64,000 nt of DNA from an uncultured Chryseobacterium sp. (GCA_964511555.1 CAZEFR010000001.1:83698-147697), one strand, 5' to 3'; shown: positions 4,573 through 27,731, numbered from the stretch's first letter. Made by a program: numbers and translations. The notes: generated by a model from the letters alone, not told the origin.

Positions 4573-4575
4573 AAC

Positions 4576-7079: not shown

Positions 7080-8117
7080 TTAAAGAGTAATGTGTATTCC
7101 CATACTGTGAATGCCATTGAATGGATTCGTAACACGATAAGAGTAATCCAATCCAATTACACCCCCATTGTCACCGGTAGGCAATTGAATGGTCATTCCA
7201 CCCGTAGGACCAGTTAGAGCACTTTGTGCATTGTAAGTGGTGCTTGAACCAATGTCTTGTTGGAATCCACCGCGTAAAAATAAACGGTCTCTGAGGTTGA
7301 ATTCTAAGCCCAAGGCAAGCTGATCTTTACTGAAAGAGTTAGACGTATAGGCGCTATTTGCAGTAAGTTTCATCTTGTTCTTCATAAGGAAGTCGTACGC
7401 GAAACCAACATTAACCATAGAAGGCATTTCATAAGGCTGCGAACGTTGCTCTACCGTAAGGGTGTTTCCATTTGAAGGAATGACAGCAGACACCGTAAGA
7501 CCGTCGCCTTTGTAGCGCATGGTTGGTCCAACGTTACGAAGCGTTATTCCGAAACGGATGTTATCTTTTTCTCCTGTAACATAACGTATACCCGCGTCGA
7601 AAGCAACACCTTGTGAGCGGACATTGTAGATAGCTTCACTTATAAGTCTAACAGTGATACCGCCATAAATACTGTTCGAAAATTCTTTTGCGAAACTGAT
7701 ACCTATGTTTGAATAGTTAGCAGTGAAAGAACCAATTCCACCTTCGGGAAGATCTTCGGTAGTTCTGTCAATTTCACCAAAGTTCATATTTACAACAGAC
7801 AAGCCAAAAGCTCCTGAATTGCCTATTTTTTGTCCGAAGGCAGCTGAATTAAGTTGTATGCCTGTACCAACGAAATACTGCGTATTTGTGAAAAGTAGTT
7901 CAGTCTTTTTGATGAAGGCGAGGCCAGCAACATTAAGGAAAACACTTTCAACGCCACTTACGGAAGCTAGCGAAGAGTTAGCTAATCCAGAAGAGCGAGC
8001 CCAGGGATTGACCAAAAGATGGCTTGCGCCTGCTGCTCCAGATCTGTCAGGATTTCCCGCAAATGCTGAAGTAAGCGTAACAAAGAGAATAGCGAACGTT
8101 AAGATTGTATTTTTCAT
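7080..8117 (-). CDS. PorV/PorQ-family-like outer-membrane beta-barrel protein
   Basis: Signal peptide MKNTILTFAILFVTLTSAFA. The N-terminal pattern GAAGASHLLVNPWARSSGLANSSLASVSGVESVFLNVAGLAF resembles the PorV signature (PFLLi.pDARaaglGd..A....s...NPAgLaf). Alternating beta-strand pattern throughout, ending HSMGIHITL. Confidence 0.55.
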   Translation of the reverse strand: MKNTILTFAILFVTLTSAFAGNPDRSGAAGASHLLVNPWARSSGLANSSLASVSGVESVFLNVAGLAFIKKTELLFTNTQYFVGTGIQLNSAAFGQKIGNSGAFGLSVVNMNFGEIDRTTEDLPEGGIGSFTANYSNIGISFAKEFSNSIYGGITVRLISEAIYNVRSQGVAFDAGIRYVTGEKDNIRFGITLRNVGPTMRYKGDGLTVSAVIPSNGNTLTVEQRSQPYEMPSMVNVGFAYDFLMKNKMKLTANSAYTSNSFSKDQLALGLEFNLRDRLFLRGGFQQDIGSSTTYNAQSALTGPTGGMTIQLPTGDNGGVIGLDYSYRVTNPFNGIHSMGIHITL

Positions 8118-11100: not shown

Positions 11101-12331
11101 ACTTTCTCATTCCAAAACGTTCGTTGTCTACAACACCATCGCCGTATCCAATACCCAAACCTTTGTAGGGAATACCGTCTTCGTCAATTGCTTCAAGTAT
11201 ATCGGTTGTAAGCGGGTTATCTTTGTTATCGGCATCTTGGTAGGGTCCTTCGAAGAAATCCACACCAACCGCTGGTGGGTTCGCACCATAACCTAGCGAA
11301 GAAGCAGTAGTCTCATCGAAGGCATCTCCGTTGTAGCAGTATCCAAGACCACGTTGAACATCACAACCAACATAGTCATCTACAGAAGTACCCAAGTCAG
11401 CATCAACCCATGATCCGAAATAAGTTTCTGTTAATGTTTGTGAACCTTGGTTAATTAGGACGTAATTGTAGAAAGTCATGTTATTAACCTCGTCGTTCGA
11501 AGTAAAAGCAAAAGCTTGAGCACGAATCTCCATTCCAATGGGTTGTCCTTGAGATTCGGTGTGCGCATTTCCTTTATCGTTGAAGATCCAATAAAAAGTT
11601 TGGTCACCGTAAAGAGGAACAATGTCTTCTCTACGACGCTCAGCACAATTGATTTCTCTTAAGAAATCGTACCAAGGATAGTCACCGTTTTGAGGGTTAT
11701 AGAATCCATCATTGTCGTAATCGTAAAATGGTGCCAGGTATAAATCTTGGCCTGCAGCAGTATTTCCAATAGCAGGGTATTCGTAGAAGTAACCAGGAAT
11801 AGCATAGTCTGTAGCACAGTCAGTTCCTCCGGCTTGAATGCAATCGTAATATGCTCGGTGCTTTTGGGCATCTTGTCTGAAAGAGACAAAGAATCTATCG
11901 TACTGCTCGCAAGTGGTTTCATTCACGGATGCTGTACCATCGTTAGTAAGAGGACCGGGCCAGTAGTCATTTCCAGATGCTCTGAACGTAATCGCTGCCA
12001 ACTTCAGCTGTTGGTCTGGCGATATACCACCCATCCACAATGAACCGGCATATATTGAAGACACTCCGCTTCCTTTCGGAACTTCGTAAGCTGCTCTGCT
12101 TAAAGAACGACTTTGCCACATGGAACCACCTGTTTCAATGAGTGCTTTAACGTTGTTCCAAGCCAGGTCTCTTAGACCAGTAGCAGGAGCGCACAATGCT
12201 GCTCTCGATTCTGCTACAACATCAGCATTCTGGGCCATCCCTGAATTTTCAAGTACTGATTTGTAACCGAATGCTTGGTTAGCAAAACCAAGTGAAAGAG
12301 CAATTAGACCGAGGTATATATTTTTTCTCAT
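8138..12331 (-). CDS. Very large secreted protein of unknown function with DxDxDG calcium-binding-type motifs and a T9SS-like C-terminal domain
   Basis: The ATG at 12331 gives the signal peptide MRKNIYLGLIALSLGFANQAFG; the ORF track extends to 12349. Motifs FYDYDNDGFYNP, AIDEDGIPY and AEDNDGDNSVDP are present. The C-terminus VVPNPYYAF..VTIFDLNGNRIRQF..WDLKN..ASGTYIIHVNV..KILKW resembles a type-A/FlgD-Ig-like sorting domain. Confidence 0.75.
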   Translation of the reverse strand: MRKNIYLGLIALSLGFANQAFGYKSVLENSGMAQNADVVAESRAALCAPATGLRDLAWNNVKALIETGGSMWQSRSLSRAAYEVPKGSGVSSIYAGSLWMGGISPDQQLKLAAITFRASGNDYWPGPLTNDGTASVNETTCEQYDRFFVSFRQDAQKHRAYYDCIQAGGTDCATDYAIPGYFYEYPAIGNTAAGQDLYLAPFYDYDNDGFYNPQNGDYPWYDFLREINCAERRREDIVPLYGDQTFYWIFNDKGNAHTESQGQPIGMEIRAQAFAFTSNDEVNNMTFYNYVLINQGSQTLTETYFGSWVDADLGTSVDDYVGCDVQRGLGYCYNGDAFDETTASSLGYGANPPAVGVDFFEGPYQDADNKDNPLTTDILEAIDEDGIPYKGLGIGYGDGVVDNERFGMRKFVYYNNSQNPVNGEPALPSHFYNYMRGFWKNGQRMNYGGNGASGANVTEINADYMFPDDTDPLHWGTGGVITEDWSEESEGNPPNDRRFIQAAGPFTLKPGDYNNITLGVVWARANSGNPFESVRLLREFDDKAQSLFDNCFELVSGPDAPDVTIQELDKEIILMLSNDNAISTNFQENYGPSQGGFDPSIPEELADGTQLTEEQRSYKFEGYLVYQRASDDVSASDLGDIQKARLIAQCDVENGIGRIINFSRDPETGYIIPELKVDGADEGIQRSFRVTTDAFATGNNALINHKTYYFMVIAYGYNNYSQYDIGLEKGQDEAFLSSRKSALGAIQKIAAIPHIPSPELGGTIQNSNYGDGVPLTRLEGKGNGANDLLLSSETEAIILANNNISELTYAPGKGPVQVKVVDPLRVPSADFELRLKTTEFGEDAPDSMYWELENLDDGTIYGTYKKFDTSSEDVILDWGLSVTWGQYEYQVEGSTVRHYTELLSSTISYADPSKPWLTGIQDAEGFSEQNWIRAGNVKTEGTDPQALSEALYDDYEQGSSGFPFTDEQEKYEAVVGGTWSPYCLVSGTVLDPNDDNIVVNNVAPTINELKSDLDQLDQQRKSSIRGLNNIDVVFTKDKTKWTRCPVLEMQFTPELAEDNDGDNSVDPEKMKVRRAPSVDKNGRKAGQPGYNAAEGDLVSGIGMGWFPGYAIDLSTGERLNMAFGEDSWLVGENGRDMIWNPSSRLYTNNGQPLFGGQHWIYVFKNLRWEDYSASSPNSSLSLCPAYDNGAFLHSTLSNPSISSSNWKKVFRGCTWVGSGLVNPEHPLLSVEEGLIPNDVRISIRVAKPFASYAYNSPDLTSAEGSVNEWRNIYTFSTKNIATTTSDENTLTSVLDIINVVPNPYYAFSSYETNKLDNRIKITNLPDICDVTIFDLNGNRIRQFKKADQITSIDWDLKNERNIPIASGTYIIHVNVPGIGEKILKWFGVMRPVDLNNF

Positions 12332-12360
12332 GCTGTGTGAATAAATCATTTTGAAGAAAA

Positions 12361-15300
12361 TTAAAAATCAAATCTCATTCCTAAACGTATTTGACGTGGC
12401 GCACCCAAATTGAAAGGATTGTTGACAAACATGCTGTAGTAGTTTCTGAATGATTCAGGATTGTTTTGGGTGTTGATTACGTTCTGGTATTGAGCCGCGG
12501 CAAGGTAACCGTCGTCATCAGGAGTTCCAGTAAATCTGTATACACTTGAGACATTTTGAGTATTCAACAAGTTTGTTATCCAGAAGTAAACGTTCAGATT
12601 TGCAGCTTTTTGTTTGTCTCCTTCTCCCCCGAACTTCAAACTGAAGTTCTTATCGAGGTTCATGTCAACAGTGAATTGCCATGGAAGACGTGAACTGTTG
12701 ATGCCACCTGCAGTTGTTGGGCTAATTTCCCCTGTAATGGGCGTGGGGAATACTTGAGCGGTGTATGGAGTACCTGAACCCAAGTTAGCTATAAGGTTAG
12801 CACCTGTATTTGCAAAAATTTGTTTTCCAAACCAAACGGGTCCGTTGTATTCTTTTCCTTCTCCATAACGATAGTCTACAGTAGTCACAATTCTGTGACG
12901 CTGATCGTAATTCACAGGAGCTACAGTTCTTAAGTTTGGAAGTCCTGCATTAATAAGGGCCAATTGCGTTTGTGTAGTTGAACCTGTTCCGTCTGCGAAT
13001 TGAAGCGTATACGAGGTTTTCATCCAAAGATTACCTGTTCTTCTCAAATCATAAGTTAAGGTCAAACCTTTAACAGTACCGAAGTCAAGGTTTCCGAAGG
13101 CACTATATGTGCTCGGGTATGCTCCATTGAATCGGCGAACTTGTATCATGTCGCGTAATTCACGATAGAAAGCTTCAACTTTGATAGAAGATGTTTTAGA
13201 CAAAACTTGTTGGAAACCAAGTGCGTAATCTACTGTTTTTTCAGGACGTAGATCAGGGTTATTTAACAACACGTTTCTGTTTTCCATAAACAAATAATCA
13301 ACTGGATTGAAGCGATTGCTTGTTGTTGGACGTTGTGTTAGGATGTCGTAGTGCGCGAAGAATAGCGCCTCTTCCGAGATAGGGAAAGAGAAGGCTACGC
13401 GAGGCATGAAGTTAACAGCAGGTGTATATTCTCTGAAGGCATTGCTTGTTAGAGCAGCATCTGGGTCAACGCTCAAATATGGATTAATTTTTCCACCTGC
13501 AGCAATGCTTGTGAAAGGGTCATTTACAAGTGTTCCTTGTGCATTGTACCAGTTATCGCCATCGCGGTATCCTTGAATCGCCGTTGGGTTGTTTATATCA
13601 TCTACGTAAACCACGAAGTTGTCTCCAATGTTGGATGGACGAGAAGTACCGAAGTCGCCAAAATCAACCTCACCTGCGGTAAAGGCTTCACTGATAACGT
13701 AAGGATCCTTCGGAACGTATTGGTTTGCATCGTATCTGTCGATACGCAGACCCACGTTAAAGATTAAGTCGTCGAAGGCGAACTTATCCATGATATAACC
13801 TGAAATGTATACAGGCTCGAAAGCACCTACCGAACGAGTATAGTATGAACCATTTCCAAGAGAATACCTTTCAGCGAAGAAATCGTCTAAAGATGGTCTT
13901 CTGCTTAACATGTTACCTCTGTGATCGAAACCGAAATAGGTAACTACGTTATTTCCTGAGTTTAATAGGTCATCGGCACCGAACATGTCAACTGACAAGA
14001 AATCTGGACTCAAACCATCTGTGTTTATAAAATCTGTTCCGTTAGGATCAAGACCCATAGCAGTTCTTAGATTATAATCGAACTCAAATTGATCGCTACC
14101 AACGAGATTTGCGTAATCTACGTATGTGAATGTTCCGTTGTTCGAATAAATAGGGCTATCTGTGTCTAACTCTTGGTTGTGGTAGTTTGCATATTGACGG
14201 GCTAGCGTCCACAAGCTAATAGGAGCAACCGCGTATCCGGCATCTTTACGCTGCTCGAATTCAAAACCAACTTCGATGGCGTGATCACCGATATCAGCAG
14301 AGCCAGAACCGGAAACACGGAATTGATTGTTTCGAGAAATACTATAGTTGTTTGATTTAGCACCAACGTGTGACCAAAGATCATAAGTTCCGGCGGGCTG
14401 TTGGCCATTCACTAATCCATTACCACCTTGAATATTGGTTATCGAAGCATATGGAGAATTACCAATCTGCTCTGTTTCTGAGGTAAAGTCATTTATAGAG
14501 GGGTCGAAGAATTGGTTGTCTGTAATAATAGGATCTGTTCCATTCAATACTTCGGTTACATATGGATTGGTATTGAAAAGTGTGAAGAATTGGTTTGTTA
14601 TTGCAGCAAGGTCAGGATTGTATTCAGACGGTGTGAAGTTCACGTTAACGTCCTGCCAACCGTTCTGCTCGAAATAGTTTCCAGAACTATTTAATGTGTA
14701 TGAAGGCGTTCTGAAAATGTCGAAATTACCAACGTGACCATATCGGAAAAGATTTCCACCGTGTGTAGCGTCTTCTGACCGATTGTATGAGCTGCTATAA
14801 TCTGCTTGAATTCTGTAGAATACATTTTTAAGATTCGAGCTTGCAGATTCGTCTTCTGCATTTTTGAAACGCTGCGCGAATTTCGCGTAAGCACGCCAAT
14901 CGAGCCCTGTGTTTTGCTGGTTATTCTCCCAGTTCATTAACATGTTTCCATAGTCAAAACCATTTCCGCGACTTATCGCTGCTGTACCCCCGAAGGTTAG
15001 CGTAACGTTTTCAGAGGCATTTAAATCAATTTTACCAACAAGATTCGCTTGTCTATTGCGAACGTTCATTCGCGTATTGATTTTTTCAAAATCATTTGCT
15101 GTTAAGAAATCGGCATTGTAAAGTGCGCCGTTTACTGTTCCGTCAGCCTGAACGTTTTGACGCAATGGATTTGCCAAAAGTCCTTGACGAGCATCTTCTT
15201 TCATGCGATAAACTCCACCAAAGGTTGGTCCACCGTCTACAATATCTGTGTAGTTTCCTGATAAAAAGAAGCCAAGGATAGGTCGCCCTTTTGTTCCGTC

Positions 15301-16122
15301 AGCCTTTTTTCTAAACAAAATAGGTCCAGATAAAGAACCTTCAAGAAGGTTATAGCCGTAATAATCCAAACCTACTGCTTTGTCTCCAACTTGAAAACCT
15401 GAGGTAATTGCTTCAATACCCCCGGTGTATTCAGACGAAGCTGATCTCAGTGATATGTTAATGACACCGCCCGTTGCATCACCAATATTTGCTGGAATAC
15501 CACCGGTGATTACAGAAACTTCTTCGATAGCAGATTTCGGAAGTGAAGTAGACCCACGAACCTTAATACCATCAATGTATACCCATGTCGAATTGGTGCG
15601 GGCACCACGAATAGAGATACCTCCACCTGTTCCGGCTGAGCTAACACCTGCAACGGTTTGTGCAAGGCCAAGCGCATCACGACTAGGCATTTTCTCTAAC
15701 TCTTCGCGAGTTACAGTTCCTCCGGAAGCACCACCATCTTTATCAATGAGGGGAATTCGGTATTCTTTAATTTCTACGGTATTCATTTCCACCCCTGGGC
15801 TCAATTCAGCATTCGCGAATTGAATTTTTCCGGCAGAAATAGGAATTCCTGTTTGACTTTGGGTCTGGTAACCAACAAAGTTGAATTGAACCTCGTAGGT
15901 TCCAGGATCAATTGGTTTAATGGTGTATTGTCCATCTGGATCTGTTTGGCCACCTGTAATCAGATTTCCATTCAAAAACAGAACCACATTCACGAAGGGA
16001 AGAGGTTTCTTTGTCTCTTTGTCAATGACTTTTCCTTTTAAAGATCCACCGTTTCCTTGTGCAAATAAACTTGACACTGAAAGGATCATAAAACTCAAAA
16101 GGAGGTATACTTTTCTCTGCAT
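12361..16122 (-). CDS. Oversized (1253 aa) TonB-dependent-receptor-like outer-membrane protein with CarboxypepD_reg N-domain
   Basis: Signal peptide, then LKGKVIDKETKKPLPFVNVVLF..DPDGQYTI. Plug region (ISIRGARTNSTWVYIDGIKV, GGIPANIGDATGGVINI), and a terminal barrel strand RQIRLGMRFDF. Confidence 0.85.
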   Translation of the reverse strand: MQRKVYLLLSFMILSVSSLFAQGNGGSLKGKVIDKETKKPLPFVNVVLFLNGNLITGGQTDPDGQYTIKPIDPGTYEVQFNFVGYQTQSQTGIPISAGKIQFANAELSPGVEMNTVEIKEYRIPLIDKDGGASGGTVTREELEKMPSRDALGLAQTVAGVSSAGTGGGISIRGARTNSTWVYIDGIKVRGSTSLPKSAIEEVSVITGGIPANIGDATGGVINISLRSASSEYTGGIEAITSGFQVGDKAVGLDYYGYNLLEGSLSGPILFRKKADGTKGRPILGFFLSGNYTDIVDGGPTFGGVYRMKEDARQGLLANPLRQNVQADGTVNGALYNADFLTANDFEKINTRMNVRNRQANLVGKIDLNASENVTLTFGGTAAISRGNGFDYGNMLMNWENNQQNTGLDWRAYAKFAQRFKNAEDESASSNLKNVFYRIQADYSSSYNRSEDATHGGNLFRYGHVGNFDIFRTPSYTLNSSGNYFEQNGWQDVNVNFTPSEYNPDLAAITNQFFTLFNTNPYVTEVLNGTDPIITDNQFFDPSINDFTSETEQIGNSPYASITNIQGGNGLVNGQQPAGTYDLWSHVGAKSNNYSISRNNQFRVSGSGSADIGDHAIEVGFEFEQRKDAGYAVAPISLWTLARQYANYHNQELDTDSPIYSNNGTFTYVDYANLVGSDQFEFDYNLRTAMGLDPNGTDFINTDGLSPDFLSVDMFGADDLLNSGNNVVTYFGFDHRGNMLSRRPSLDDFFAERYSLGNGSYYTRSVGAFEPVYISGYIMDKFAFDDLIFNVGLRIDRYDANQYVPKDPYVISEAFTAGEVDFGDFGTSRPSNIGDNFVVYVDDINNPTAIQGYRDGDNWYNAQGTLVNDPFTSIAAGGKINPYLSVDPDAALTSNAFREYTPAVNFMPRVAFSFPISEEALFFAHYDILTQRPTTSNRFNPVDYLFMENRNVLLNNPDLRPEKTVDYALGFQQVLSKTSSIKVEAFYRELRDMIQVRRFNGAYPSTYSAFGNLDFGTVKGLTLTYDLRRTGNLWMKTSYTLQFADGTGSTTQTQLALINAGLPNLRTVAPVNYDQRHRIVTTVDYRYGEGKEYNGPVWFGKQIFANTGANLIANLGSGTPYTAQVFPTPITGEISPTTAGGINSSRLPWQFTVDMNLDKNFSLKFGGEGDKQKAANLNVYFWITNLLNTQNVSSVYRFTGTPDDDGYLAAAQYQNVINTQNNPESFRNYYSMFVNNPFNLGAPRQIRLGMRFDF

Positions 16123-17650: not shown

Positions 17651-18919
17651 ATGAAAGACCAAATTATTTTCGATTTAATCGAGCGCGAGAGGATCCGACA
17701 AACAAACGGAATAGAGCTAATCGCTTCAGAAAATTACGTAAGCAATGACGTTATGCAGGCTACGGGGTCTGTTCTTACGAACAAGTATGCGGAAGGTCTT
17801 CCGAGAAAGAGATATTATGGTGGTTGCGAGGTGGTAGATGAAATTGAACAAATTGCGATTGATAGATTGAAGATGTTGTTTGGCGCTTCATGGGCGAACG
17901 TTCAGCCTCATAGCGGGGCTAATGCGAACAGTTCTGTAATGCTGGCAATACTTAATCCGGGAGATGCTATTTTGGGCCTAGATCTTTCTCAAGGTGGGCA
18001 CCTAACCCACGGCTCTCCTGTAAACTACTCGGGAAAATTGTACCGACCGTTTTTTTACGGGGTGGAAAAAGAAACCGGACGGGTAGACATGAATAAAGTT
18101 CGAGAAAAGGCTATAGAGTGTAAACCTAAGCTTCTTATTTGCGGAGCAAGTGCATACAGCCGCGATTGGGATTATGCTGCATTTCGGTCGATAGCCGATG
18201 AAGTTGGGGCTGTACTTTTAGCAGATATTTCTCATCCGTCTGGTCTCATAGCTGCCGGATTGCTCAATCATCCCTTTCCTCATTGTCACATTGTAACCTC
18301 TACCACTCACAAAACCTTACGTGGACCGAGAGGCGGTGTGATTATGGTTGGAAACGACATGCCAAATCCATTGGGTTTAAAAACTATGAAGGGTGAAGTT
18401 CGTTCGCTATCTTCAGTGCTTGACAGTGGGGTGTTTCCGGGTATGCAAGGCGGCCCGCTAGAGCATGTTATAGCGGCGAAAGCTGTAGCTTTCAATGAGG
18501 CCTTAACAGATAATTTCAAATTATATGGAAAGCAGGTGATGGCTAACGCGAGTGCCCTTGCAGATCATCTTACCGCAAAGGGTTATGAGATTGTTTCCGG
18601 AGGTACAGATAATCACTGTTTCCTTATTGATCTTCGTAATAAAAATATTTCGGGAAAGGATGCGGAGCATGCCCTTGTAAGTGCAGAAATTACCGTGAAT
18701 AAAAACATGGTTCCTTTCGACGATAAATCACCGTTCGTCACTAGTGGAATTCGAATTGGAACACCAGCAATTACTACTCGCGGATTGAACGTCAGTGATA
18801 TGGCTTTTGTGGCCAATGCAATTGATAAAGTTATTTCAAACGCTTCAAACGAAGATGTGATTCGAGCAGTGAAAATGGAAGTACACGAACAAATGTCTTC
18901 GAGACCATTATTTGCGTAA
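17651..18919 (+). CDS. glyA: Serine hydroxymethyltransferase
   Basis: The ATG at 17651 gives [13 protein letters not shown]. Motifs seen: LIASENY, TNKYAEG, and [14 protein letters not shown] (PLP lysine). Confidence 0.95.
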
Positions 18920-20485
18920 TCTGAAAAGATCTTCTTTTGATAGAGGGCGCTCGTTTCCGCGCCAAATAAAGTCCTCCAATTTGAATTGTGAGGATTTTGT
19001 TTTTTGAATGCTATTGTACAAGCTGTTTGGCTCGTTTTCAAGTGTAACTTTTTGAATTGCTTTTTCTTTCAATTCAATGCGAATGTTCGAACAGTCTGAT
19101 CTGTTCAAACCGGTGAGTTTAGTGCTTTTGTTTTTCTCTTCTGTTGAGAAATAGGCGAGTTGTCCATTTCCATTAATTTGAACTTCGTGAAGATCGTTTT
19201 GAATGAATTGTCCGTGCAGCGATTTCCCTTTTATCTGGTTGAAGTATCCGGGCACAACTTCGGATGCTAAAAAACTTTTCTCTGGAACAAAAAGAAAATC
19301 TAAACTGTCATTTTTGAAGTGCAGATTTATCTCTGTTCCCGTAAGTTGATTTGCGTCGTTCCACAGGACGGGAGAGTAGAACATTCGCATGACTGAATCT
19401 GCTTCAGACAGTGAAAGAGAATCGCATTTGCCTTGTAAGTCTTTGCTGAACAGAATCACGTTGTGATAGGCTTTAATGTCGCGGTTTTTATCACTTGTTT
19501 TCTTGGCAAACAGAGTGTCAGCTACAATGAAAAGCGTGTCTTTATTTTCGAGTGTTTTTTCGAGAATACTTTTTCCGGTTACCCATGAAATTTCGTTTGT
19601 TTCCTCGTGCCTTCCATAATCACCCCGAATGGTTAAGTCGGAATTGTTGTCAACGATAATTACATGCTGAAAAGCTTCGCCCCATTTCTCTTTTCCATTG
19701 TAAAAAATGCTGTCACCGAATAGCGTTTGTTCTTTCGATTTTACGCGTGCATTTTTCTTGAAACTGCAGGTCTCTGTTTTCGAATTGAAGAAACCGTTTT
19801 CACATGTTATTTCAAGGTCTTTTCCTGTTATTGTTGTGGGTCCGAAGAAATAGGATATCTCTGTAACAGTGTTGTAAAGCATGGTGTCTGAAATTACAGT
19901 GTAGTCTTTGTTCTTGACAGTTACTTTTCTGCGAAAAGTGAAATTGTTAGAAGGGCTGTGATAGCGTCCCGTTTGAGAAACCAATTCGTTGTTATTCTTG
20001 CTTGAAACTACCTTGCCACCTCCGGAATATGTTGCTACTTCAGTTTTCAGGTTGTAAGACATGTTGGGTGAAGTAAGGGTCATTGCCCCATCTGTGAAAA
20101 TACAATTTTCGTTTATGGTTGCAACCTGGGTGGCGTCAGTGAAAAAGAGTTTTTTTCCTGAAATAGTGTACTCACCTGGTTTGTTTACACGAATGTTTCC
20201 GAAAGCCTGGAAATTTCCATTATTAAATTTATATGCCGAATCACAAAGAAAATTCGTGCCGTCGAAGTTCAAATGAACGTTTCCTAATAGGCGTTGCCCA
20301 TTGACTAGATTTTTGTTGAATGCAATTTTATCGGCATGCACCAATTGCACGTGTTTGCCTTGTCCTTCTGCGTTCTGCGAAATCAGAAATACGGAAAGCG
20401 CAACAAGAAGTATTTTAACGAAGTTGTGTATTGTTCGCGGTTTATCTAACAATGGTTTGCTCACGGTCTGGACCAACGGAAACAT
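18908..20485 (-). CDS. OstA-like (LptD N-terminal-like) domain protein
   Basis: Repeated OstA-like beta-jellyroll segments ([34 protein letters not shown]). No start codon lies downstream of the purA stop, so the start (M at 20485 or 20515) overlaps purA by 44 or 74 nt. Confidence 0.7.
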
Positions 20486-21710
20486 AGGTGATAGGAATTT
20501 CCAATTCCTTTTCAATGAATGCGATGTAATCTGACAGCTCCTGTGGGAATTCTTCGATTGTTCTAATTTTAGTCAAATCAGTATTCCATCCTTTTAAAGT
20601 GGTGTAAATAGGCTCTACTTTTCCGTCTAACAAATCGTAAGGCATCTCATCTGTTTGCACACCATTGATTGTGTAGTGTGTGCAGACATGAATTTCTTCA
20701 AAGATGCTAAGTACATCTGCCTTCATCATGTACAACTCTGTGATTCCGTTTAGTCGACAAGCATAGCGAAGCGCGGGAATATCTAACCAACCGCAGCGAC
20801 GAGCACGACCGGTTGTAGAACCGAATTCGTTTCCTTCTTTGCGCATGCGTTCTCCAACTTCATTTTCTAGTTCAGTGGGGAATGGGCCACTGCCAACACG
20901 GGTGCAATAGGCTTTGAATATTCCGAATGCCGATCCAATGGAATTCGGTGCAATACCCAGTCCAGTGCACGCTCCCGCAGCAACCGTGTTACTTGAAGTA
21001 ACAAACGGATAAGATCCGAAGTCAATATCGAGAAGTGAACCTTGGGCACCTTCAGCTAAAATCTTTTTGTTTTCGCGAATGGCTTTGTGCAGGTAATTTT
21101 CGCTGTCTATGAAGGTTAAAGTCTTTAACACTTCGATTCCTTGGAACCACGCTGCTTCCATCTCGTCAAGTGAATATTCGAATTGAAAATGCGAAAGCAT
21201 TTTCTTGTGCTTTTCTACAAGCGTGTTGTATTTTTCGATGAAGTTTTCTGAAAGAATGTCACCGATGCGAAGGCCATTGCGACCTGTTTTGTCCATGTAG
21301 GTTGGACCAATACCCTTCAAGGTAGATCCAATTTTAGACTTCCCCTTTTCGGCTTCAGAAGCTGCGTCGAGAAGCTTGTGTGTCGGAAGAATGAGATGCG
21401 CTTTTTTCGAAATTAGAAGTCGTGATGCAACATCTACATTTTTAGCATTGAGTTTTCCTATTTCGGTAGCGAAAACGATGGGGTCAATTACAACGCCATT
21501 TCCAACTACATTGGTAACATGATTATGGAAGATTCCACTTGGAATGGTGTGCAGAACATGTTTTGTTCCGTTGAACTCGAGGGTATGACCCGCATTGGGT
21601 CCGCCTTGAAATCTGGCTACGATGTCGTATTTCGGAGTTAATACGTCTACAATTTTCCCTTTTCCTTCATCGCCCCACTGAAGGCCTAACAATACGTCTA
21701 CTTTGCTCAT
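20442..21710 (-). CDS. purA: Adenylosuccinate synthetase
   Basis: QWGDEGKGKIVD P-loop, GPNAGHT, TTGRARRCGWLD. Confidence 0.97.
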   Translation of the reverse strand: MSKVDVLLGLQWGDEGKGKIVDVLTPKYDIVARFQGGPNAGHTLEFNGTKHVLHTIPSGIFHNHVTNVVGNGVVIDPIVFATEIGKLNAKNVDVASRLLISKKAHLILPTHKLLDAASEAEKGKSKIGSTLKGIGPTYMDKTGRNGLRIGDILSENFIEKYNTLVEKHKKMLSHFQFEYSLDEMEAAWFQGIEVLKTLTFIDSENYLHKAIRENKKILAEGAQGSLLDIDFGSYPFVTSSNTVAAGACTGLGIAPNSIGSAFGIFKAYCTRVGSGPFPTELENEVGERMRKEGNEFGSTTGRARRCGWLDIPALRYACRLNGITELYMMKADVLSIFEEIHVCTHYTINGVQTDEMPYDLLDGKVEPIYTTLKGWNTDLTKIRTIEEFPQELSDYIAFIEKELEIPITYVSVGPDREQTIVR

Positions 21711-21739: not shown

Positions 21740-23086
21740 TTATTCAAAATAAGCCTTATTTTCTTCAAGGAAATTTTCCAACTTACTTCTCATGATGAGT
21801 CGGCTAATGACTTTCATATTCGAGTCAAGCGCTATAAGCGTGGGAGTGGAAGGGGAAGGGTAATGTTTAGCTAAGTGTGGGCGCTTGTCCATGGGGGGAA
21901 GTACGTTGATCCACGGTTGTTGATGTGTTGATAAGTGATTTTTCCACAGCGCCTCTTCTTTGTCAATGGAGATGGCATAGACTTCCAATCCTTTTTCGTG
22001 GTATTTTTTATAAATCTCTTGGAGCTTAGGGTGGAACTCTTCACAATGTGAACAATTACTTCTCCAAAACATGACTAAAGTCACTTTGTTTTTTTTACAA
22101 GTTTCTTCAAGCGAAATGGTCTTCCCTTCTTGATTTGGGTACTTCAGTTCGGTGGCTTTTTTACCGGGAGAGCAGTTTTTCAAAGACTCAATGAGGCTTT
22201 TGGTGTTTACACTGAATGAAGCATTATCAGAGCATCCATCTGCGTAATTGTTTAGGTAGTAGGAGAGTCCCTCTTCATTTTTATAGTCCAACATTTTATT
22301 CAACATGAAAGAATGCAGGTATTGGTTCACGGCTTCATTCTCACCCATTCGTCCCAACAATTCATCTGTAAATTTCTGAGCGTATTCTTGCGGGTAGGAC
22401 TTGTAAAGCTGATTGAAGTATTGGTTGAGGCCACGCACGAAGGCATAGTGAAACAGTATTACCTCGTTATTGTAGTCAACATTTCCGAGAAAATGCTTGA
22501 AATAGATTGTGCTGTCGAATTGCATGAAGTCATGCGGAAGTCTGCGACAGAAAAGCGGTGCAAAGTTGGAGTAGACCTCTGAATTTTGTGCCTCTTTGGA
22601 CTTTTCTAAAGTCTTTGTATTGATGATTTTTTGCTTGTTCAGGAAAGCAGGATGGGTGATTGATTTGTACGAATCGAAATCCAGTTGAAGGTTTGCATAC
22701 AGCGTTGCTAATTCAACATAATCCACTTGTTCATCTGAAAGAAAGAGAGAGGTAGGTAGTCCGTTTAGTTTCAAGAAGTCTAGAGTTAAGTCAATGGATT
22801 TCGGAAGCGTTTTCGGGTTAATATAAAAGTCGGTCCAAGCTTTGCCTGATCCTGAAAAACGAAGGCGGTATTGCCCGATATGGGAAGGCGTGAAGCTTAT
22901 TGAAACGGCTCCCTCTTCATCTAACTCAGAAGTTGATAGAATTTGCCACTGGTCCTTTTCAAAGGCTTCGAGAAATACTTTTTTAGAACTCTGCACCGGT
23001 ATATTTTCAACATGAAGTTTCATACTCGTTTGCCCGAATGCAATCGATAAGCCAAGGGTCAATATGACGGTGAGAATTGATTTCAT
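21740..23086 (-). CDS. Secreted thioredoxin-fold (TlpA/AhpC-TSA-like) protein with a long N-terminal domain
   Basis: Signal peptide present. The C-terminal thioredoxin fold carries a WRSNCSHCEEF CxxC motif. Confidence 0.8.
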   Translation of the reverse strand: MKSILTVILTLGLSIAFGQTSMKLHVENIPVQSSKKVFLEAFEKDQWQILSTSELDEEGAVSISFTPSHIGQYRLRFSGSGKAWTDFYINPKTLPKSIDLTLDFLKLNGLPTSLFLSDEQVDYVELATLYANLQLDFDSYKSITHPAFLNKQKIINTKTLEKSKEAQNSEVYSNFAPLFCRRLPHDFMQFDSTIYFKHFLGNVDYNNEVILFHYAFVRGLNQYFNQLYKSYPQEYAQKFTDELLGRMGENEAVNQYLHSFMLNKMLDYKNEEGLSYYLNNYADGCSDNASFSVNTKSLIESLKNCSPGKKATELKYPNQEGKTISLEETCKKNKVTLVMFWRSNCSHCEEFHPKLQEIYKKYHEKGLEVYAISIDKEEALWKNHLSTHQQPWINVLPPMDKRPHLAKHYPSPSTPTLIALDSNMKVISRLIMRSKLENFLEENKAYFE

Positions 23087-23087
23087 G

Positions 23088-23119
23088 GTGAAAAAAAAAG
23101 GTCACCGAAGTGACCTTTT
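23088..23119 (-). terminator. Strong intrinsic terminator after the lipoprotein operon
   Basis: On the minus strand: AAAAGGTCAC-TTCG-GTGACCTTTT (10 bp) running into a 9-nt T tract. It ends 4 nt before the next ATG (23086). Confidence 0.75.
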
Positions 23120-23134
23120 AAAAGGGATTTAAGA

Positions 23135-23716
23135 TTATTTACCTTGAGAAAGTTTCTCCATTTCTTTGTCGAAAGTTTCTTTGAATTTTTCGTAGTTGTA
23201 GTCAGCTTTTAATTTGTCATTTTTAGACAACCCACTTTGGTATGCATCTGCGATAGTGTTTCCGCTTAACTCAAGAGCAACGTAACTTACATAAGTTCCA
23301 TCAGGGCGTTGAGTTAATTTTTCACAGATTTCAATGCAACCGCGAAGTTCTTGGTCAACAACTGTGCGAGCCATTTCGTTGAAAGACTCAGTTACTTCTT
23401 CTTTGTTGTTTACTTCAGTGGAGTTAACGTAGTTGTCACCAACAATTTTCATTGTAGCGCTGATTGTTTTTCCCATTTCAGACATAGCGTTTGAACGCGC
23501 TTTTTTCTTAGCAGTCTCACGATCCATGCTCTCGCCTGTAGCGGTTGAACGAAAAGCTTCGTTGGTACTTTTGTAATCATTACCTGAGCAGTATTCATTG
23601 ATGATTACTTCTCCTTTTGGGTCTGGAGTTTTCACTTCGTCTTTGTTCTTCTTGCAAGAAGGGATAGCAACCATTGTCATTGCAGCAATTGCTAAAAGGG
23701 TAATACGTGTTTTCAT
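23135..23716 (-). CDS. LPP20/FlgP-like lipoprotein
   Basis: Lipoprotein signal MKTRITLLAIAAMTMVAIPSC. Pattern TGESMDRETAKKKARSNAMSEMGKTISATM...VDQELRG...YVSYVALELS resembles the LPP20 family. Confidence 0.6.
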   Translation of the reverse strand: MKTRITLLAIAAMTMVAIPSCKKNKDEVKTPDPKGEVIINEYCSGNDYKSTNEAFRSTATGESMDRETAKKKARSNAMSEMGKTISATMKIVGDNYVNSTEVNNKEEVTESFNEMARTVVDQELRGCIEICEKLTQRPDGTYVSYVALELSGNTIADAYQSGLSKNDKLKADYNYEKFKETFDKEMEKLSQGK

Positions 23717-23764
23717 TTTGTCAAGATATTAGTTGTATTGTTGTTTTCAGTTATTGTGCCAAAC

Positions 23765-25147
23765 TTACAAAATAATTTTAATTATTTCTGGGATTAGCGT
23801 GGTTTCAATAATTTCTCTTTGTTTTTTATACGCTTCTAAGACTGCATTTTCGTGAGAAAGTTGCACGCCTTTGACTCCATTGATGCTGTGTTCATATACA
23901 GGAGAGTTTGTTTTGGTGTCGTTAACAACAAATTTACCATCGATGTACGCTACTTTAAAACCTTGAATATCTTCTCCTGCTCGCGGATTTACGTTTATGT
24001 AAATGACGTAATCTGCATTTGTTTCACTTGATTCAATTCGCATGCCTCGGCTAACGAGGGTGTTTTTCGTTGTTTCTGAAAGCGTTGTGATTTTAGTGCC
24101 GTCGAGTCGAAATTCATTGGTTGTTATGAAGAAAGTGGGTGCGAGAATTTCAATAGGAATTTTCCTGCTATCAGTGTTTATCCCTGTTATGAGAGCTTTT
24201 GCAAGGTCGGAATCTAGGTCCTGAGGTACCAGGGCGTCAATGACTAGACTTAGTTCAAGAGCGTTGTTTCTGGCCTTGAGAGATACATTGTCTACATCGG
24301 CTAAAATAATTCCATCATTATCAGACATGACAGTTTTAGGTTTCATGAAATTGTCTCTTTGATAAGAATATCTCACATTTATGCCTCGCACACCTTCGCC
24401 TTTGTATGTAACCATTATCGGTACTTGAGCTTTGAAAGTGTTTTTAGACGAAAGAACGATATTCTTGAGAGGTGTTTCAAAGCGCAAGTCGGCTAATACT
24501 GCTCTTATCTCGGAAAATAGTTCGTTGTCTATGAAAATTTCGTTCCCATTTTCATCTTTTACTCTGTTTACCTCAGTCCAGTATGGTTTCAGAGCAAAAA
24601 GCCCGTGATAAAAAAGATCTATAGCAGTTGGTATATTTTTATTCTTTTTAGCCTCTCTGCCTTTTTTTAAAAAATCCAACGCTGATCTCAGTGTATTGTC
24701 TTTTTTCTGATCTTTTTTTGTTTGATAATCGAGCTTGTTAAGTCTGTAGTAGACGGCATAAATTTCTTTGTCCTCCCATATTCCAGCAACTTCATAATCT
24801 TCCAACAATTCAGAAGATGATGTTGTAACGTTTGAACTAAAGCTTTCACTGAAGGCTTTATTTACTTCCATGGTATTAAAGAAGGTTTGGCCTTCAACTT
24901 TCACAGAAATCTCTGTTGCTAAATCGTTCAGGGCTAATTTCTTTGCTATTGCTTGAAATTCTGTTGGCTGCGTAATCTTCGAGCAAGTGGCAATGCCAAT
25001 GTAATACGCAGAGTTAATTGGTCTAGAAGACACCCATTCTGGTTTTGGTTGTGGAGGAGGAACAACTGTTTTGACTGAGTCTTTAGAGCCACATGCATTT
25101 AGCAGAACGATTCCCAAAAAAAGGAAGTATTTGTAAAATAGTTTCAT
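23765..25147 (-). CDS. Lipoprotein with N-terminal LPP20-like domain and a C-terminal domain of unknown function
   Basis: Lipoprotein signal FLGIVLLNACGSKD. PEWVSSRP..YYIGIA..QAIAKKLALNDLATEISVKVEGQ..EDYEVAGIWED..YAVYYRL fits the LPP20 pattern. TAATG overlap with the upstream gene. Confidence 0.6.
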   Translation of the reverse strand: MKLFYKYFLFLGIVLLNACGSKDSVKTVVPPPQPKPEWVSSRPINSAYYIGIATCSKITQPTEFQAIAKKLALNDLATEISVKVEGQTFFNTMEVNKAFSESFSSNVTTSSSELLEDYEVAGIWEDKEIYAVYYRLNKLDYQTKKDQKKDNTLRSALDFLKKGREAKKNKNIPTAIDLFYHGLFALKPYWTEVNRVKDENGNEIFIDNELFSEIRAVLADLRFETPLKNIVLSSKNTFKAQVPIMVTYKGEGVRGINVRYSYQRDNFMKPKTVMSDNDGIILADVDNVSLKARNNALELSLVIDALVPQDLDSDLAKALITGINTDSRKIPIEILAPTFFITTNEFRLDGTKITTLSETTKNTLVSRGMRIESSETNADYVIYINVNPRAGEDIQGFKVAYIDGKFVVNDTKTNSPVYEHSINGVKGVQLSHENAVLEAYKKQREIIETTLIPEIIKIIL

Positions 25148-26517
25148 TAGGGAACAAGCGTTTGCATTTGTATTTTGACGTTATCAGCAATCTTCTTTGC
25201 TATTTCAATGTACAAGTCATTGGCGAGGTCATTTCCATCGCGAAGGTTTCTTCTTGCGTTAAGCATTTCTCTCAGTGCATTGCGATCTCTAGTGTTGGTA
25301 TTCACTACATTCCCGTTAGCAGGGAGCAAATTGTTTGTATTTCCGCCATAAACCGCATAGATTACCTCGTCTTTTTTCTTTTCAGTAAAGATGTCGTTTT
25401 TAATCAAGGAAGCGGTTTCAATAGAAGTCATTTTGTATTGGATAGAAACGTTGGATTCTGAGAAGTTGTAATACTCATCGAATTGAGTTGGTTTGTATTC
25501 AGTGTCGTAAAATGTTTTTCCTTCAGAATTTACTTTCTTCACTTGATAGGATTCGAAGCCGTTTCGAGTCACTTTTCGAATTTGTCCATTTTGTACGGTG
25601 TGATTCAGGACGGTTCCCGTTATCAGTGCTTTAGCTCCTGATATTTTGCCAATTTCAACAGCATTAGATTCAGAGAAAATTCCGCTCATCTGAATGCGTT
25701 GTTCAGCAAGAATATTATTAAGGTTTTCACGATCTATTACATGAAGAAATGGATCGTTAATCTGAGTCAGTGCATTTAAAATGTAGGCTGTTGCTTTCGT
25801 GTCGCTTCCCTGCATGTTGGTGCCGTTGCTAAAGGGAAGTAATGCAACGGTATACTTTCCCCTTTCAAGAGATTTCTTTTTGAGCTCTGCAGACTCTTTG
25901 TATCCTAATTTACGTTCTTCAACTTTTATAAAATTGTTGTAAGCTGCACGGTAATGTTTGGCCTCAAATTCAGTAACTGCCTTTTGATAAATGGGTTCGA
26001 GGTATGCGATATCTTTTAGTTCGCCTGCATTTTTGAAATTGGGGTCAAGTCTACCAATTTCATTGAAATTGATTTCAGCATCTGCGAATTTATTTTCTTC
26101 AAGTAACGAGGCTCCTTGTTCGTAGAGATCAGTCAAGTATGATTTTTTGACTTTTTCAAAGTCGCCATTGTAGAAATCGGGAATTTGAAGTTCTACGCCT
26201 ACACCGGCAATCTTCGCTTTGTATTCTCTTGCTGCAATGAAGGAATAAACTGCTTCTTTTTTGTTCCCAAAACTGCTTTTTTGACTAAAGTCACTGAGCA
26301 TGTTACTCAAAACTGTTTGCCCAGTTTTTTTCATTCCAATTTGGGCGTCTATGTTGGCTCTTTTTTTCCAAAGCGCGGTGTAGTAATTCTCAGAGGCTTC
26401 TTTGGTCAATCCAGCCGCCTCTTGTTTCTTAGCAAGTTTCGTAAAGTATTTGCTGTTGTGACAAGACTGAGCAGTCACTAGAAGAAGCGCGCTTAAGAGG
26501 AAAAGGACTGTTCTCAT
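25147..26517 (-). CDS. Lipoprotein with TPR-like helical N-region and a CsgG/LpoB-like C-terminal domain
   Basis: Signal LLLVTAQSC. YTVALLPFSNGTNMQGSDTKATAYILNALTQINDPFLHVIDRENLNNILAEQRIQMSG..GAKALITGTV..VSIQYKMTSIETASLI follows the CsgG-family pattern (PF..tg...l...L....f.v.eR..l..il.E....G..GA..ii.G.v). Confidence 0.55.
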   Translation of the reverse strand: MRTVLFLLSALLLVTAQSCHNSKYFTKLAKKQEAAGLTKEASENYYTALWKKRANIDAQIGMKKTGQTVLSNMLSDFSQKSSFGNKKEAVYSFIAAREYKAKIAGVGVELQIPDFYNGDFEKVKKSYLTDLYEQGASLLEENKFADAEINFNEIGRLDPNFKNAGELKDIAYLEPIYQKAVTEFEAKHYRAAYNNFIKVEERKLGYKESAELKKKSLERGKYTVALLPFSNGTNMQGSDTKATAYILNALTQINDPFLHVIDRENLNNILAEQRIQMSGIFSESNAVEIGKISGAKALITGTVLNHTVQNGQIRKVTRNGFESYQVKKVNSEGKTFYDTEYKPTQFDEYYNFSESNVSIQYKMTSIETASLIKNDIFTEKKKDEVIYAVYGGNTNNLLPANGNVVNTNTRDRNALREMLNARRNLRDGNDLANDLYIEIAKKIADNVKIQMQTLVP

Positions 26518-26519
26518 AA

Positions 26520-27626
26520 TTATTTCGTTTCAATGTATTCATTTAGCTCTTCCGTACTCGAATCGAAGTTGAAGGCTTGACTTACATTGTAGTAATTGTT
26601 TTGGTCGAAGCAAAAATCGTAAGCATATTTTGCGAATTCTAGACGAGTTTCTTCGAATCCGAAAATTTGCATGATTTCAAGAATTTGGTCTGTTGTAAGG
26701 CAATTGGCTTTTGCGACTTGTCTTGCCGTTGACAGCCTGGTGTCGTCGAATCCCTTACTTTCTATGGTTTGTTTAGCTCTGCCAAAGCTTGCTGCATCCA
26801 TTGATCGAGTGCAGTTTCCGTTTCCAGAAATGGTAGCATTCGAGGGCTGGGTTGAAGATGGTTCGCTTGGACGTGTTGAGTGAGCTGGGACGGTGGAATT
26901 GCTTGAGGAAGTTGATGTTGTAGTTCTGGTAGTTGTTGTGGTTGTTCCAGATGTTTGAACATCCATGTTTGGAACATTCATGTTAATACCCATGTTCATT
27001 CCGTCTACATTAATATTCATTCCAACGTTTCCACCAGTAGTTGTGGAATTGGTTTCGCTGACATTTACATTCATTCCGAAGTTTACGCCGTCTACGTTAA
27101 CATTCATTCCAACGTTCCCCACATTTGTGGGATTGGCGTTTGTGCCGGTTACTGTTGTAGTAGTTGTTGTATTTGAATTTCCGCTGTTCACGACTCCGGT
27201 GGAGTTCTGCGTTTGAGTTGTGCTCGCAGGCACATCGTCTGCAACGGCGAAATCTTTCACGTTATTGTTGGCAGGGGAGTTCGCTGTAGAATTAGCAGAA
27301 ATAGGGTTTTCTGTAAAAAAACGAAGGACGTACTCACCTTTTTTATTTTTCTTCACTTGGTAGGTAACTTCCATTCCTGGATGAAGTGCAAAGTTGTTGT
27401 TGGAGAAATCGGCAAGTGATGCATCTTGAAAATCTACTCGTGCTTGGTAAAATTCTGATGTCAAACCTGTAAGCTTTATGTTTGCTTGAGGTGCGCTGTT
27501 CATGGCTTCGCCGTTTAAGTAAAGTGTGAATTTCTCTCCTGCTTCGGAATAAATTACGGCATTCATTTGAGCAAAAGCGTTTGAGAAAGAAAGGAGGGCT
27601 AGGGTTATTAAAGCTATTTTTTTCAT
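26520..27626 (-). CDS. Secreted protein with an N-terminal beta domain, a Thr/Asn-rich linker carrying GMNVNV ladder repeats, and a C-terminal DUF4476-like domain
   Basis: Signal peptide MKKIALITLALLSFSNAFAQ. The C-terminus MDAASFGRAKQTIESKGFDDTRLSTARQVAKANCLTTDQILEIMQIFGFEETRLEFAKYAYDFCFDQNNYYNV matches my recollection of DUF4476. Confidence 0.65.
   Translation of the reverse strand: MKKIALITLALLSFSNAFAQMNAVIYSEAGEKFTLYLNGEAMNSAPQANIKLTGLTSEFYQARVDFQDASLADFSNNNFALHPGMEVTYQVKKNKKGEYVLRFFTENPISANSTANSPANNNVKDFAVADDVPASTTQTQNSTGVVNSGNSNTTTTTTVTGTNANPTNVGNVGMNVNVDGVNFGMNVNVSETNSTTTGGNVGMNINVDGMNMGINMNVPNMDVQTSGTTTTTTRTTTSTSSSNSTVPAHSTRPSEPSSTQPSNATISGNGNCTRSMDAASFGRAKQTIESKGFDDTRLSTARQVAKANCLTTDQILEIMQIFGFEETRLEFAKYAYDFCFDQNNYYNVSQAFNFDSSTEELNEYIETK
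26973..27119 (-). repeat. Two in-frame 60-nt direct repeats spaced 87 nt apart, encoding GNVGMNVNVDGVNFGMNVNV and GNVGMNINVDGMNMGINMNV
   Basis: The DNA segments 27001-27032 and 27088-27119 are near-identical (ccgtctacRttaaYattcattccaacgttYcc). The peptide units are 15/20 identical. Confidence 0.85.
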
Positions 27627-27731
27627 CGTAATTAGGGTTGTCTTAATTGGTAAATTTAGTTATGAATCTATATGTAGAAAAGTTTATGCCAAAAAATAAT
27701 GCCTTAAGAAAGGGAAGCTAGTTGGTTTGGT

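Follow-up and report, generated by a model that had tools for sequence, protein, structure and literature searches.

We analyzed a cluster of four genes, here called A, B, C and D, in a 64,000-nucleotide stretch of DNA (hereafter, the window) from an uncultured Chryseobacterium sp. (GCA_964511555.1 CAZEFR010000001.1:83698-147697). A preliminary description, made from the sequence alone, had interpreted the cluster as an envelope operon that might form a curli-like or ring-forming export module. Our results showed that the four genes are a conserved unit of Bacteroidota; the fold and family assignments of the proteins, together with the tight coupling of B and C, favor a scaffold of several different lipoproteins, assembled as a hetero-oligomer on the periplasmic side of the outer membrane. 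The cluster and its flanking signals are the following (positions in the window).

26520-27626, minus strand: gene A, 368 amino acids (aa), Sec-exported non-lipoprotein with a C-terminal DUF4476 domain
25147-26517, minus strand: gene B, 456 aa, lipoprotein (Cys19) with TPR-like and CsgG/PelC/GNA1162-type domains
23765-25147, minus strand: gene C, 460 aa, four-part lipoprotein (Cys19), LPP20 domain first
23135-23716, minus strand: gene D, 193 aa, lipoprotein (Cys21, with a run of Lys behind it), divergent LPP20-like domain
27627..27721, minus strand: intergenic region upstream of A, candidate promoter region for A-D suggested by the sequence
23088..23119, minus strand: intrinsic-terminator-like hairpin and T run at the end of the cluster, from the sequence

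Gene organization and expression signals

The open reading frame (ORF) coordinates and the sequence agree with the compact arrangement described earlier. Genes A and B are separated by 2 nucleotides (nt) and C and D by 48 nt, and B and C share one base in a TAATG, read directly from the sequence as CCCTAATGAAA. The terminator that had been proposed behind the cluster was also found: a GC-containing hairpin of 10 bp, AAAAGGTCAC-TTCG-GTGACCTTTT, followed by a T run (23119-23096).

About 95 nt separate A from a divergent saccharopine dehydrogenase gene, and this intergenic region is common to both. It contains a sigma-70-like site, TTGGCA-16-TAGATT, at 27692-27665, and the element TAAATTTA at 27658-27651, 25 nt ahead of the ATG of A. 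TAAATTTA agrees with seven of the eight positions of TAnnTTTG, which we take to be the Bacteroidota -7 motif. A candidate promoter of A-D may lie here.

The signal peptides and lipobox Cys residues ascribed to B, C and D were supported by the orthologues, in which the Cys is invariant in C and D and conserved in at least 90% of the B sequences. None of the three carries an acidic stretch behind this Cys. In Bacteroidota such a stretch is the signal for export to the cell surface, and its absence suggests that B, C and D all face the periplasm.

Conservation and linkage of the four genes

A pattern scan with one genome per species revealed 305 genomes with a B relative, and synteny was examined by tblastn in the best 80 of the 305. 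Most of these 80 are labeled Flavobacteriales or Bacteroidota metagenome-assembled genomes (MAGs), and some belong to Crocinitomicaceae and Cryomorphaceae. The order A-B-C-D was kept, with the divergent dehydrogenase, in about 75 of the 80, down to 42% identity of B, and the four-gene set recurs at 37% B identity. Four loci lack A (L025, L074, L079 and L080). In 47 of 72 loci, the end of B overlaps the start of C, by 1 or 4 nt, which indicates translational coupling. Of the four proteins, D has changed least: its identity is 55-78% in genomes where that of B is 43-52%. The operon-like character of the module, described in the preliminary description, and its synteny across related genomes were confirmed by this survey and by the partial sets in other Bacteroidota classes listed below.

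A profile search with the B family, covering 1.84 billion representatives (clusters at 50% identity), gave at least 482 clusters of full-length B proteins at E ≤ 1e-30. Among the 150 matches listed, most are 430-480 aa long and matched over nearly their full length; the named members include Fulvitalea axinellae (FUAX_26700) and two MAGs, one of Bacteroidales and one of Bacteroidia. Partial and distant gene sets were found at these loci:

L087, Fulvitalea axinellae: D-B-C (identities 36%, 27% and 22%), without A
L088, Bacteroidales MAG: B-C, flanked on its two sides by genes for a LiaF-like protein and a histidine kinase
L083/L084, metagenome contigs: B-C only
L089, 4.87-Mb contig: B, and C without its last domain
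L090, 3.25-Mb contig: A-B alone, the A-like protein overlapping B, then a resistance-nodulation-division (RND) efflux operon
L081/L082, metagenome contigs: a B relative at 23% identity, alone

The A-like protein of L090 has 26% identity to A, the same plan, and a hairpin of the form VNINVGI-NG-VGINMNV. The A-B and B-C pairs each recur independently, and B is thus the hub of the module. The proposal that the module exists to export or display A through a lipoprotein pore was not borne out, as B-C(-D) occurs without A in several lineages.

At L088, the B-C pair stands beside a LiaF-like protein and a PF06580 histidine kinase (414-1118 and 4444-5037). At L083 (8833-11719), it adjoins an ECF (extracytoplasmic function) sigma factor gene, which has three uncharacterized ORFs beside it. 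The presence of B-C beside envelope-stress-type regulators in two distant contexts could reflect a role in envelope integrity, or it could be a coincidence.

Protein B and its comparison with CsgG

Protein B had been described as carrying a CsgG-like pattern behind a TPR-like region. The search against Pfam revealed a CsgG match (PF03783) at aa 216-306 with E 7.3e-9 (35.7 bits; cut-off 20.8), and B has in common with CsgG the motifs PF-x-N-x-T and DRE...EQ...SG. This match spans only positions 4-101 of the 210 of the profile and is not full length. Matches below the cut-offs were obtained for LpoB (PF13036, 19.9 bits vs. 22.3; NCBIfam TIGR02722, 13.6 vs. 110.55), TPR_2 of Pfam and BamD (TIGR03302, 12.5 vs. 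81.4). No NCBIfam model was matched above its cut-off by any of the four proteins, and none of the four had a meaningful hit among PDB sequences when used as a single query. In profile searches of those sequences, B gave weak TPR matches only, and C and D gave nothing useful.

The AlphaFold model of B, built on a 74-sequence alignment, has a mean pLDDT of 89.6. Its helices begin at about residue 22, with no long disordered linker predicted behind the lipid anchor, and its parts are:

25858-26460, minus strand: all-helical TPR-like domain, aa ~20-220 (AlphaFold model)
25150-25857, minus strand: CsgG/PelC/GNA1162-type alpha/beta domain, aa 221-456 (AlphaFold model and Foldseek)
25468..25578, minus strand: protruding polar/aromatic beta-hairpin, aa 314-350, at the position of the first transmembrane (TM1) hairpin of CsgG (model strands)

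Foldseek comparison of the C-terminal domain with the PDB returned CsgG as the best match (E 2.6e-5), and PelC, GNA1162, HpaA, FlgT and CT253 with E up to 1e-3. The target-normalized TM-scores were 0.3-0.63, highest for the small PelC (0.53-0.63) and GNA1162 chains. The model predicts the two-layer alpha/beta fold behind a lipobox that defines the CsgG/PelC/GNA1162 group, and it places B in this group, not with CsgG specifically.

To locate the TM1 and TM2 positions, we set the model strands of B beside the sequence of E. coli CsgG. The TM1 position is occupied by an insertion of about 40 residues between ALITGTVLNH and NVSIQYKMTS; 35% of its residues are charged, both of its faces are polar or aromatic, and the modeled hairpin is about twice as long as that of CsgG. 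Its more hydrophobic face has mean Kyte-Doolittle values of -1.05 and -0.87 (73 sequences) vs. +0.08 to +1.62 for the E. coli CsgG strands, an indicative comparison that uses what we take to be the CsgG strand limits. The hairpin is strongly conserved across the family (consensus GYESYxVKK...YKPVxYxEYYN), which suggests an interface. In the TM2-equivalent stretch (aa 390-427), which is rich in Asn, the model has a loop or short strand and a helix. With a polar hairpin at TM1 and none at TM2, B would lack what a membrane pore needs. Of the CsgG-like pattern first reported, the partial profile match, the fold group and the helical domain in front of it were upheld; the C-terminal half of the profile and the transmembrane hairpins were not found.

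Proteins C and D

Both C and D had been described as LPP20/FlgP-like lipoproteins. C matched LPP20 (PF02169) above the Pfam cut-off (E 3.8e-7, 30.9 bits vs. 25.9; profile positions 1-96 of 97). D gave a weak match below that cut-off (E 0.008, 17 bits). Thirteen of 18 D orthologues also gave weak LPP20 matches (best E 2.8e-4), and hhalign aligned D with the LPP20 N-terminal domain of C with a probability of 89% (E 2.4e-6). The lipobox Cys of D is followed by a Lys run (CKKKK).

The AlphaFold model of C (mean pLDDT 83.8) has four parts:

24737-25042, minus strand: LPP20 domain, aa 36-137 (Pfam and model)
minus strand: two long helices, aa 138-185 (model)
minus strand: immunoglobulin (Ig)-like sandwich, aa ~195-335 (model)
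23771-24136, minus strand: LptE/PelC/GNA1162-like alpha/beta domain, aa ~338-459 (model and fold matches)

The C-terminal domain matched LptE, PelC (root-mean-square deviation, rmsd, 4.7; 18% identity), GNA1162 and HpaA, and more weakly CsgG, FlgT and HP1454 (4kzs); its normalized TM-score against PelC and GNA1162 is about 0.5. Comparison of B and C by hhalign revealed no sequence relation between their alpha/beta domains, the signal peptides alone being aligned. The resemblance of the lipoproteins to ring-forming families, proposed earlier from motifs, is thus found at the level of fold (CsgG, PelC, FlgT) and of profile (LPP20/FlgP).

The LPP20 domain of C carries a 38-residue insert (aa 81-118) between its helix and the next strand, with many invariant residues. 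Among FlgP-family proteins, the presence of an insert at this site, behind the SHS2 helix and ahead of the second strand, is reported to correlate with ring formation (PMC12222027).

Protein A

Pfam confirmed that A is a DUF4476 protein (PF14771, E 7.7e-20, 71.4 bits vs. 22.5; profile positions 2-91 of 91). Its plan is fixed in 16 orthologues: a signal peptide, an N-terminal domain of about 87 aa, a Thr run, a hairpin, a Thr/Ser/Pro linker and the DUF4476 domain. The mapped parts are:

27570-27626, minus strand: signal peptide, predicted signal-peptidase I cleavage between AFA and Q
26973..27113, minus strand: two amphipathic beta-hairpin units, aa 172-218, the "Asn ladder" of the preliminary description (alignment and run statistics)
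26532..26801, minus strand: DUF4476 domain, aa 276-365 (Pfam and orthologue alignment)

The residue after the cleavage site, Gln20, is invariant in all 16 orthologues, which fits the "Q-rule" of pyroglutamate N-termini in Bacteroidota. A pair of Cys residues is also invariant in the 16-orthologue alignment, Cys272 just upstream of DUF4476 and Cys309 inside it. The N-terminal domain has no family in the Pfam scans, and neither it nor DUF4476 has a relative in the PDB by profile search.

The two hairpin units, VGMNVNV-DG-VNFGMNVNV and VGMNINV-DG-MNMGINMNV, are each composed of 7+2+9 residues and contain the four G[MI]N[VIM]NV motifs reported before. Alternating hydrophobic/polar runs of at least seven residues occur four times in 47 aa of A, compared with 1.96 per 1,000 aa in the other ORFs of the window, and four such runs were reached in none of 20,000 composition-preserving shuffles of A. 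The view of A as a Sec-secreted non-lipoprotein with Thr linkers and four repeat motifs is consistent with these results.

The likeness of the repeat to curli or a beta-solenoid was not sustained. The number of hairpin units varies (two in the window, three in L001, one in most orthologues), and the polar positions are N in the genus of the window and D, E, K, T, S or G elsewhere, as in IDVKMTV-PG-VDMRVEMTV. The "Asn ladder" is thus a single conserved hairpin that has been expanded at the level of the genus, not a solenoid, for which at least five conserved strand-turn-strand repeats would be expected; A has one to three hairpin units and no conserved Asn, and the Pfam scan found no Curlin repeat in any of the four proteins. 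What is kept among orthologues is the position of the hairpin, its turn Gly180, which is invariant, and a hydrophobic face composed strictly of V, M, I, L or F. No type IX secretion system (T9SS) sorting domain was found in A, B, C or D (Por_Secre_tail and NCBIfam C-terminal domain models), and A is most simply read as periplasmic.

In the A orthologue of L066 (L066:5948-6964, aa ~180-204), the stretch after the hairpin is expanded into VDVTFDVDMGMDMGMDMGMDMGVEI, a Met/Asp-rich repeat similar to the motifs, rich in Met, with which copper-resistance proteins bind Cu(I). We considered Cu(I) binding by the Met-rich hairpins (MDMGMDMG in L066) and set it aside, as Met interchanges with V, I and L at those positions.

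A proposed periplasm-facing lipoprotein scaffold

We propose that B, C and D form one hetero-oligomer, a probably ring- or arc-like scaffold of outer-membrane lipoproteins facing the periplasm, with B as its hub and A as a docking partner; we give this tentative reading a probability of roughly 45%. In this arrangement, B would supply a TPR-like helical platform and the CsgG/PelC-type alpha/beta domain with its protruding polar hairpin, and C and D would supply LPP20 (FlgP-type, SHS2) domains, to which C would add the Ig-like spacer and the LptE/PelC-like domain. The role of the complex would be structural. A would be a Sec-exported periplasmic partner and not the reason for the existence of the module: its long Thr-rich linkers would tie two globular ends to the short amphipathic hairpin, which may dock on the scaffold by strand addition.

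Several observations weigh against this proposal. The insert of C (aa 81-118) is predicted at pLDDT < 50 and not as a hairpin. Single-sequence and profile searches of the PDB gave no sequence-level match to any solved FlgP, Lpp20, CsgG or PelC chain, and in absolute terms the fold similarities of B and C are weak (target-normalized TM-scores 0.3-0.63). The B relative at 23% identity stands alone (L081/L082), and the neighboring genes (ten ORFs scanned with Pfam) belong to unrelated families only and give no functional clue.

The closest functional analogy of the module, and a functional one only, may be the FlgO-FlgP lipoprotein rings of Vibrio flagellar motors. The concentric rings of the Vibrio H-ring are composed of FlgO, which has a small alpha/beta core and an extended sheet, and of FlgP, an LPP20-family member; these C58 lipoprotein rings are anchored to the membrane, scaffold it and form no pore (bioRxiv 10.64898/2025.12.02.691832). 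A comparable structure is the basal disk made by FlgP in Campylobacter (PMC12222027). Like the FlgO-FlgP(-FlgT) proteins, B, C and D are outer-membrane lipoproteins encoded together, with an LPP20/SHS2-family partner and a probable location on the periplasmic face of the outer membrane, without a pore. FlgT is among the fold matches of both B and C, and FlgO, by its description, might be likened to B. Unlike the flagellar proteins, B has an extra TPR-like domain of 200 aa and C has four domains; the lineage is one with T9SS cargo, and there was no Pfam match to FlgO and no significant match to solved PDB chains. Among the window ORFs scanned with Pfam (a minority of the 53 ORFs of at least 150 aa), none was a flagellar gene.

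The lpp20 operon of Helicobacter pylori (HP1454, HP1456/Lpp20 and HP1457) also encodes several secreted or lipidated proteins with LPP20-type folds, and HP1454 is among the matches of C. It differs from the module in belonging to another phylum and in the lack of any sequence-level relation of our proteins to the solved Lpp20. To our knowledge, the H. pylori operon has no CsgG-type member. We regard the gene set as a non-flagellar, phylum-wide variant of known lipoprotein scaffolds under the outer membrane. In the literature searched, we found no description of this combination of genes, in agreement with the preliminary description. A particle seen by cryo-tomography in the outer membrane of F. 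johnsoniae was considered as a link and rejected: it is secretin-like, and its authors attribute it to GspD.

Alternative explanations

Four other functions were weighed. The first is regulation of class A penicillin-binding proteins (PBPs), in which B would reach from the outer membrane as an Lpo-like activator with C and D as accessory subunits. B resembles LpoB, the outer-membrane activator of PBP1b, in its fold superfamily and in the weak Pfam and NCBIfam matches given above, and several B relatives have precomputed LpoB matches. TPR-like domains occur in LpoA and LpoP, and we know of no Lpo analogue described for Bacteroidota. We nevertheless consider this function unlikely, because the LpoB matches are below the family cut-offs, the model of B has no long disordered linker after the anchor, and no PBP gene is linked to the module in any context examined.

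In the second, the pore would be split between two proteins: B would form a CsgG-like periplasmic ring without membrane strands of its own, and the hairpins of A, on their Thr tethers, would make the barrel in trans. The strictly hydrophobic and polar faces of these hairpins, the flexible linkers, the invariant turn Gly, the absence of hydrophobic hairpins at the CsgG TM positions of B and the recurrence of A-B adjacency at 26-29% identity are all consistent with such a channel, whose two-part architecture, if true, has not been described for any secretion system. However, the strands of A are only 7-9 residues long, rich in Met and without the belt of aromatic residues that is typical of outer-membrane barrels; B-C(-D) occurs in many lineages with no A nearby, and there is neither a cargo candidate nor an energy source. 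We judge it quite improbable. In a milder version, the lipoprotein trio may be the non-flagellar ancestor type of FlgO/FlgP ring scaffolds.

A third function, a funnel in which the TPR-like domain and the PelC-like domains of B and C would lead an exopolysaccharide toward a porin of the outer membrane, appears highly improbable. PelC, a dodecameric lipoprotein ring, and GNA1162/DUF799 have the same type of small alpha/beta lipoprotein fold and gave the best normalized TM-scores for B and C, and in the Pel system the TPR domain of PelB works with PelC. Unlike pelC, the module is not surrounded by pel or other polysaccharide genes: genes for a glycosyltransferase, polymerase, flippase or porin are linked to it neither in the window nor in related loci, and its proteins have no sequence-level match to PelC.

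Curli-like or beta-solenoid export, in which B would be a CsgG-type outer-membrane pore secreting or displaying A and the repeats of A would polymerize, is largely refuted: in its favor are the CsgG match of B, the CsgG chains at the top of the Foldseek results, the lipoprotein nature of B, the alternating N/G-hydrophobic repeats of A and the adjacency of A and B in two divergent lineages, but B matches only the N-terminal half of the profile, has a polar TM1-position hairpin of about twice the length and a loop and helix for TM2, and carries an extra TPR-like domain, most A orthologues have a single hairpin with D, E, K or T for Asn, and B-C(-D) exists without A. Nor were CsgA, CsgB, CsgE and CsgF, components encoded by the E. 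coli csgDEFG and csgBAC operons, found. Pfam gave no CsgE, CsgF or Curlin_rpt match in the four proteins or in ten neighboring ORFs, and no match in the window had an E below 0.3 by tblastn with E. coli CsgA, CsgB, CsgC, CsgE and CsgF, a search that would miss remote homologues.

Implications

Most of what is known of lipoprotein rings under the outer membrane concerns parts that assist flagella (FlgP, FlgO, FlgT) or funnels and pores for export (PelC, CsgG). If the scaffold proposed here is real, a conserved module that pairs these fold types in non-flagellar Bacteroidota is an unstudied part of the envelope of the phylum, and it could reveal the role of such scaffolds before their recruitment to flagellar motors. 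Several envelope processes of Bacteroidota still lack identified outer-membrane components, for example surface-lipoprotein export and cell-wall synthase activation, and a phylum-wide lipoprotein complex is a reasonable candidate for either. The evidence on the module demonstrates no new mechanism. Since D-B-C is present in the complete genome of a named species, Fulvitalea axinellae, genetic work may be possible there, provided that the strain can be cultured and is open to manipulation.

Neighboring genes in the window

Other genes of the window noted during the analysis are:

21740-23086, minus strand: 448-aa secreted protein with a C-terminal TlpA/AhpC-like thioredoxin domain, directly downstream of the cluster terminator
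18908-20515, minus strand: 535-aa OstA_2/LptD_N/LptC-like ORF with a TTG start
12361-16122, minus strand: 1253-aa TonB-receptor or SusC-like ORF, domains CarboxypepD_reg and Plug
8138-12349, minus strand: 1403-aa ORF without a Pfam match at E ≤ 1e-5, directly downstream of the 1253-aa Plug ORF
7080-8117, minus strand: 345-aa ORF without a Pfam match, next after the 1403-aa ORF
4576-6081, plus strand: esterase-like protein with a T9SS C-terminal sorting domain (Por_Secre_tail)
46827-49817, minus strand: 996-aa protein with CotH, LTD and CHB_HEX_C domains and a Por_Secre_tail

The TlpA/AhpC-like neighbor keeps its place beside the cluster in the closest genus only, at B identities of at least 82%. 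The OstA_2/LptD_N/LptC-like ORF overlaps the end of purA by about 74 nt, and its true start is probably farther downstream than the TTG called. A link of the module to lipopolysaccharide transport, through this gene and the LptE-like fold of C, was considered and rejected, as this neighbor too is syntenic only in the closest genus. The Por_Secre_tail domains of the esterase-like and 996-aa proteins confirm that the window comes from a Bacteroidota genome with T9SS cargo.

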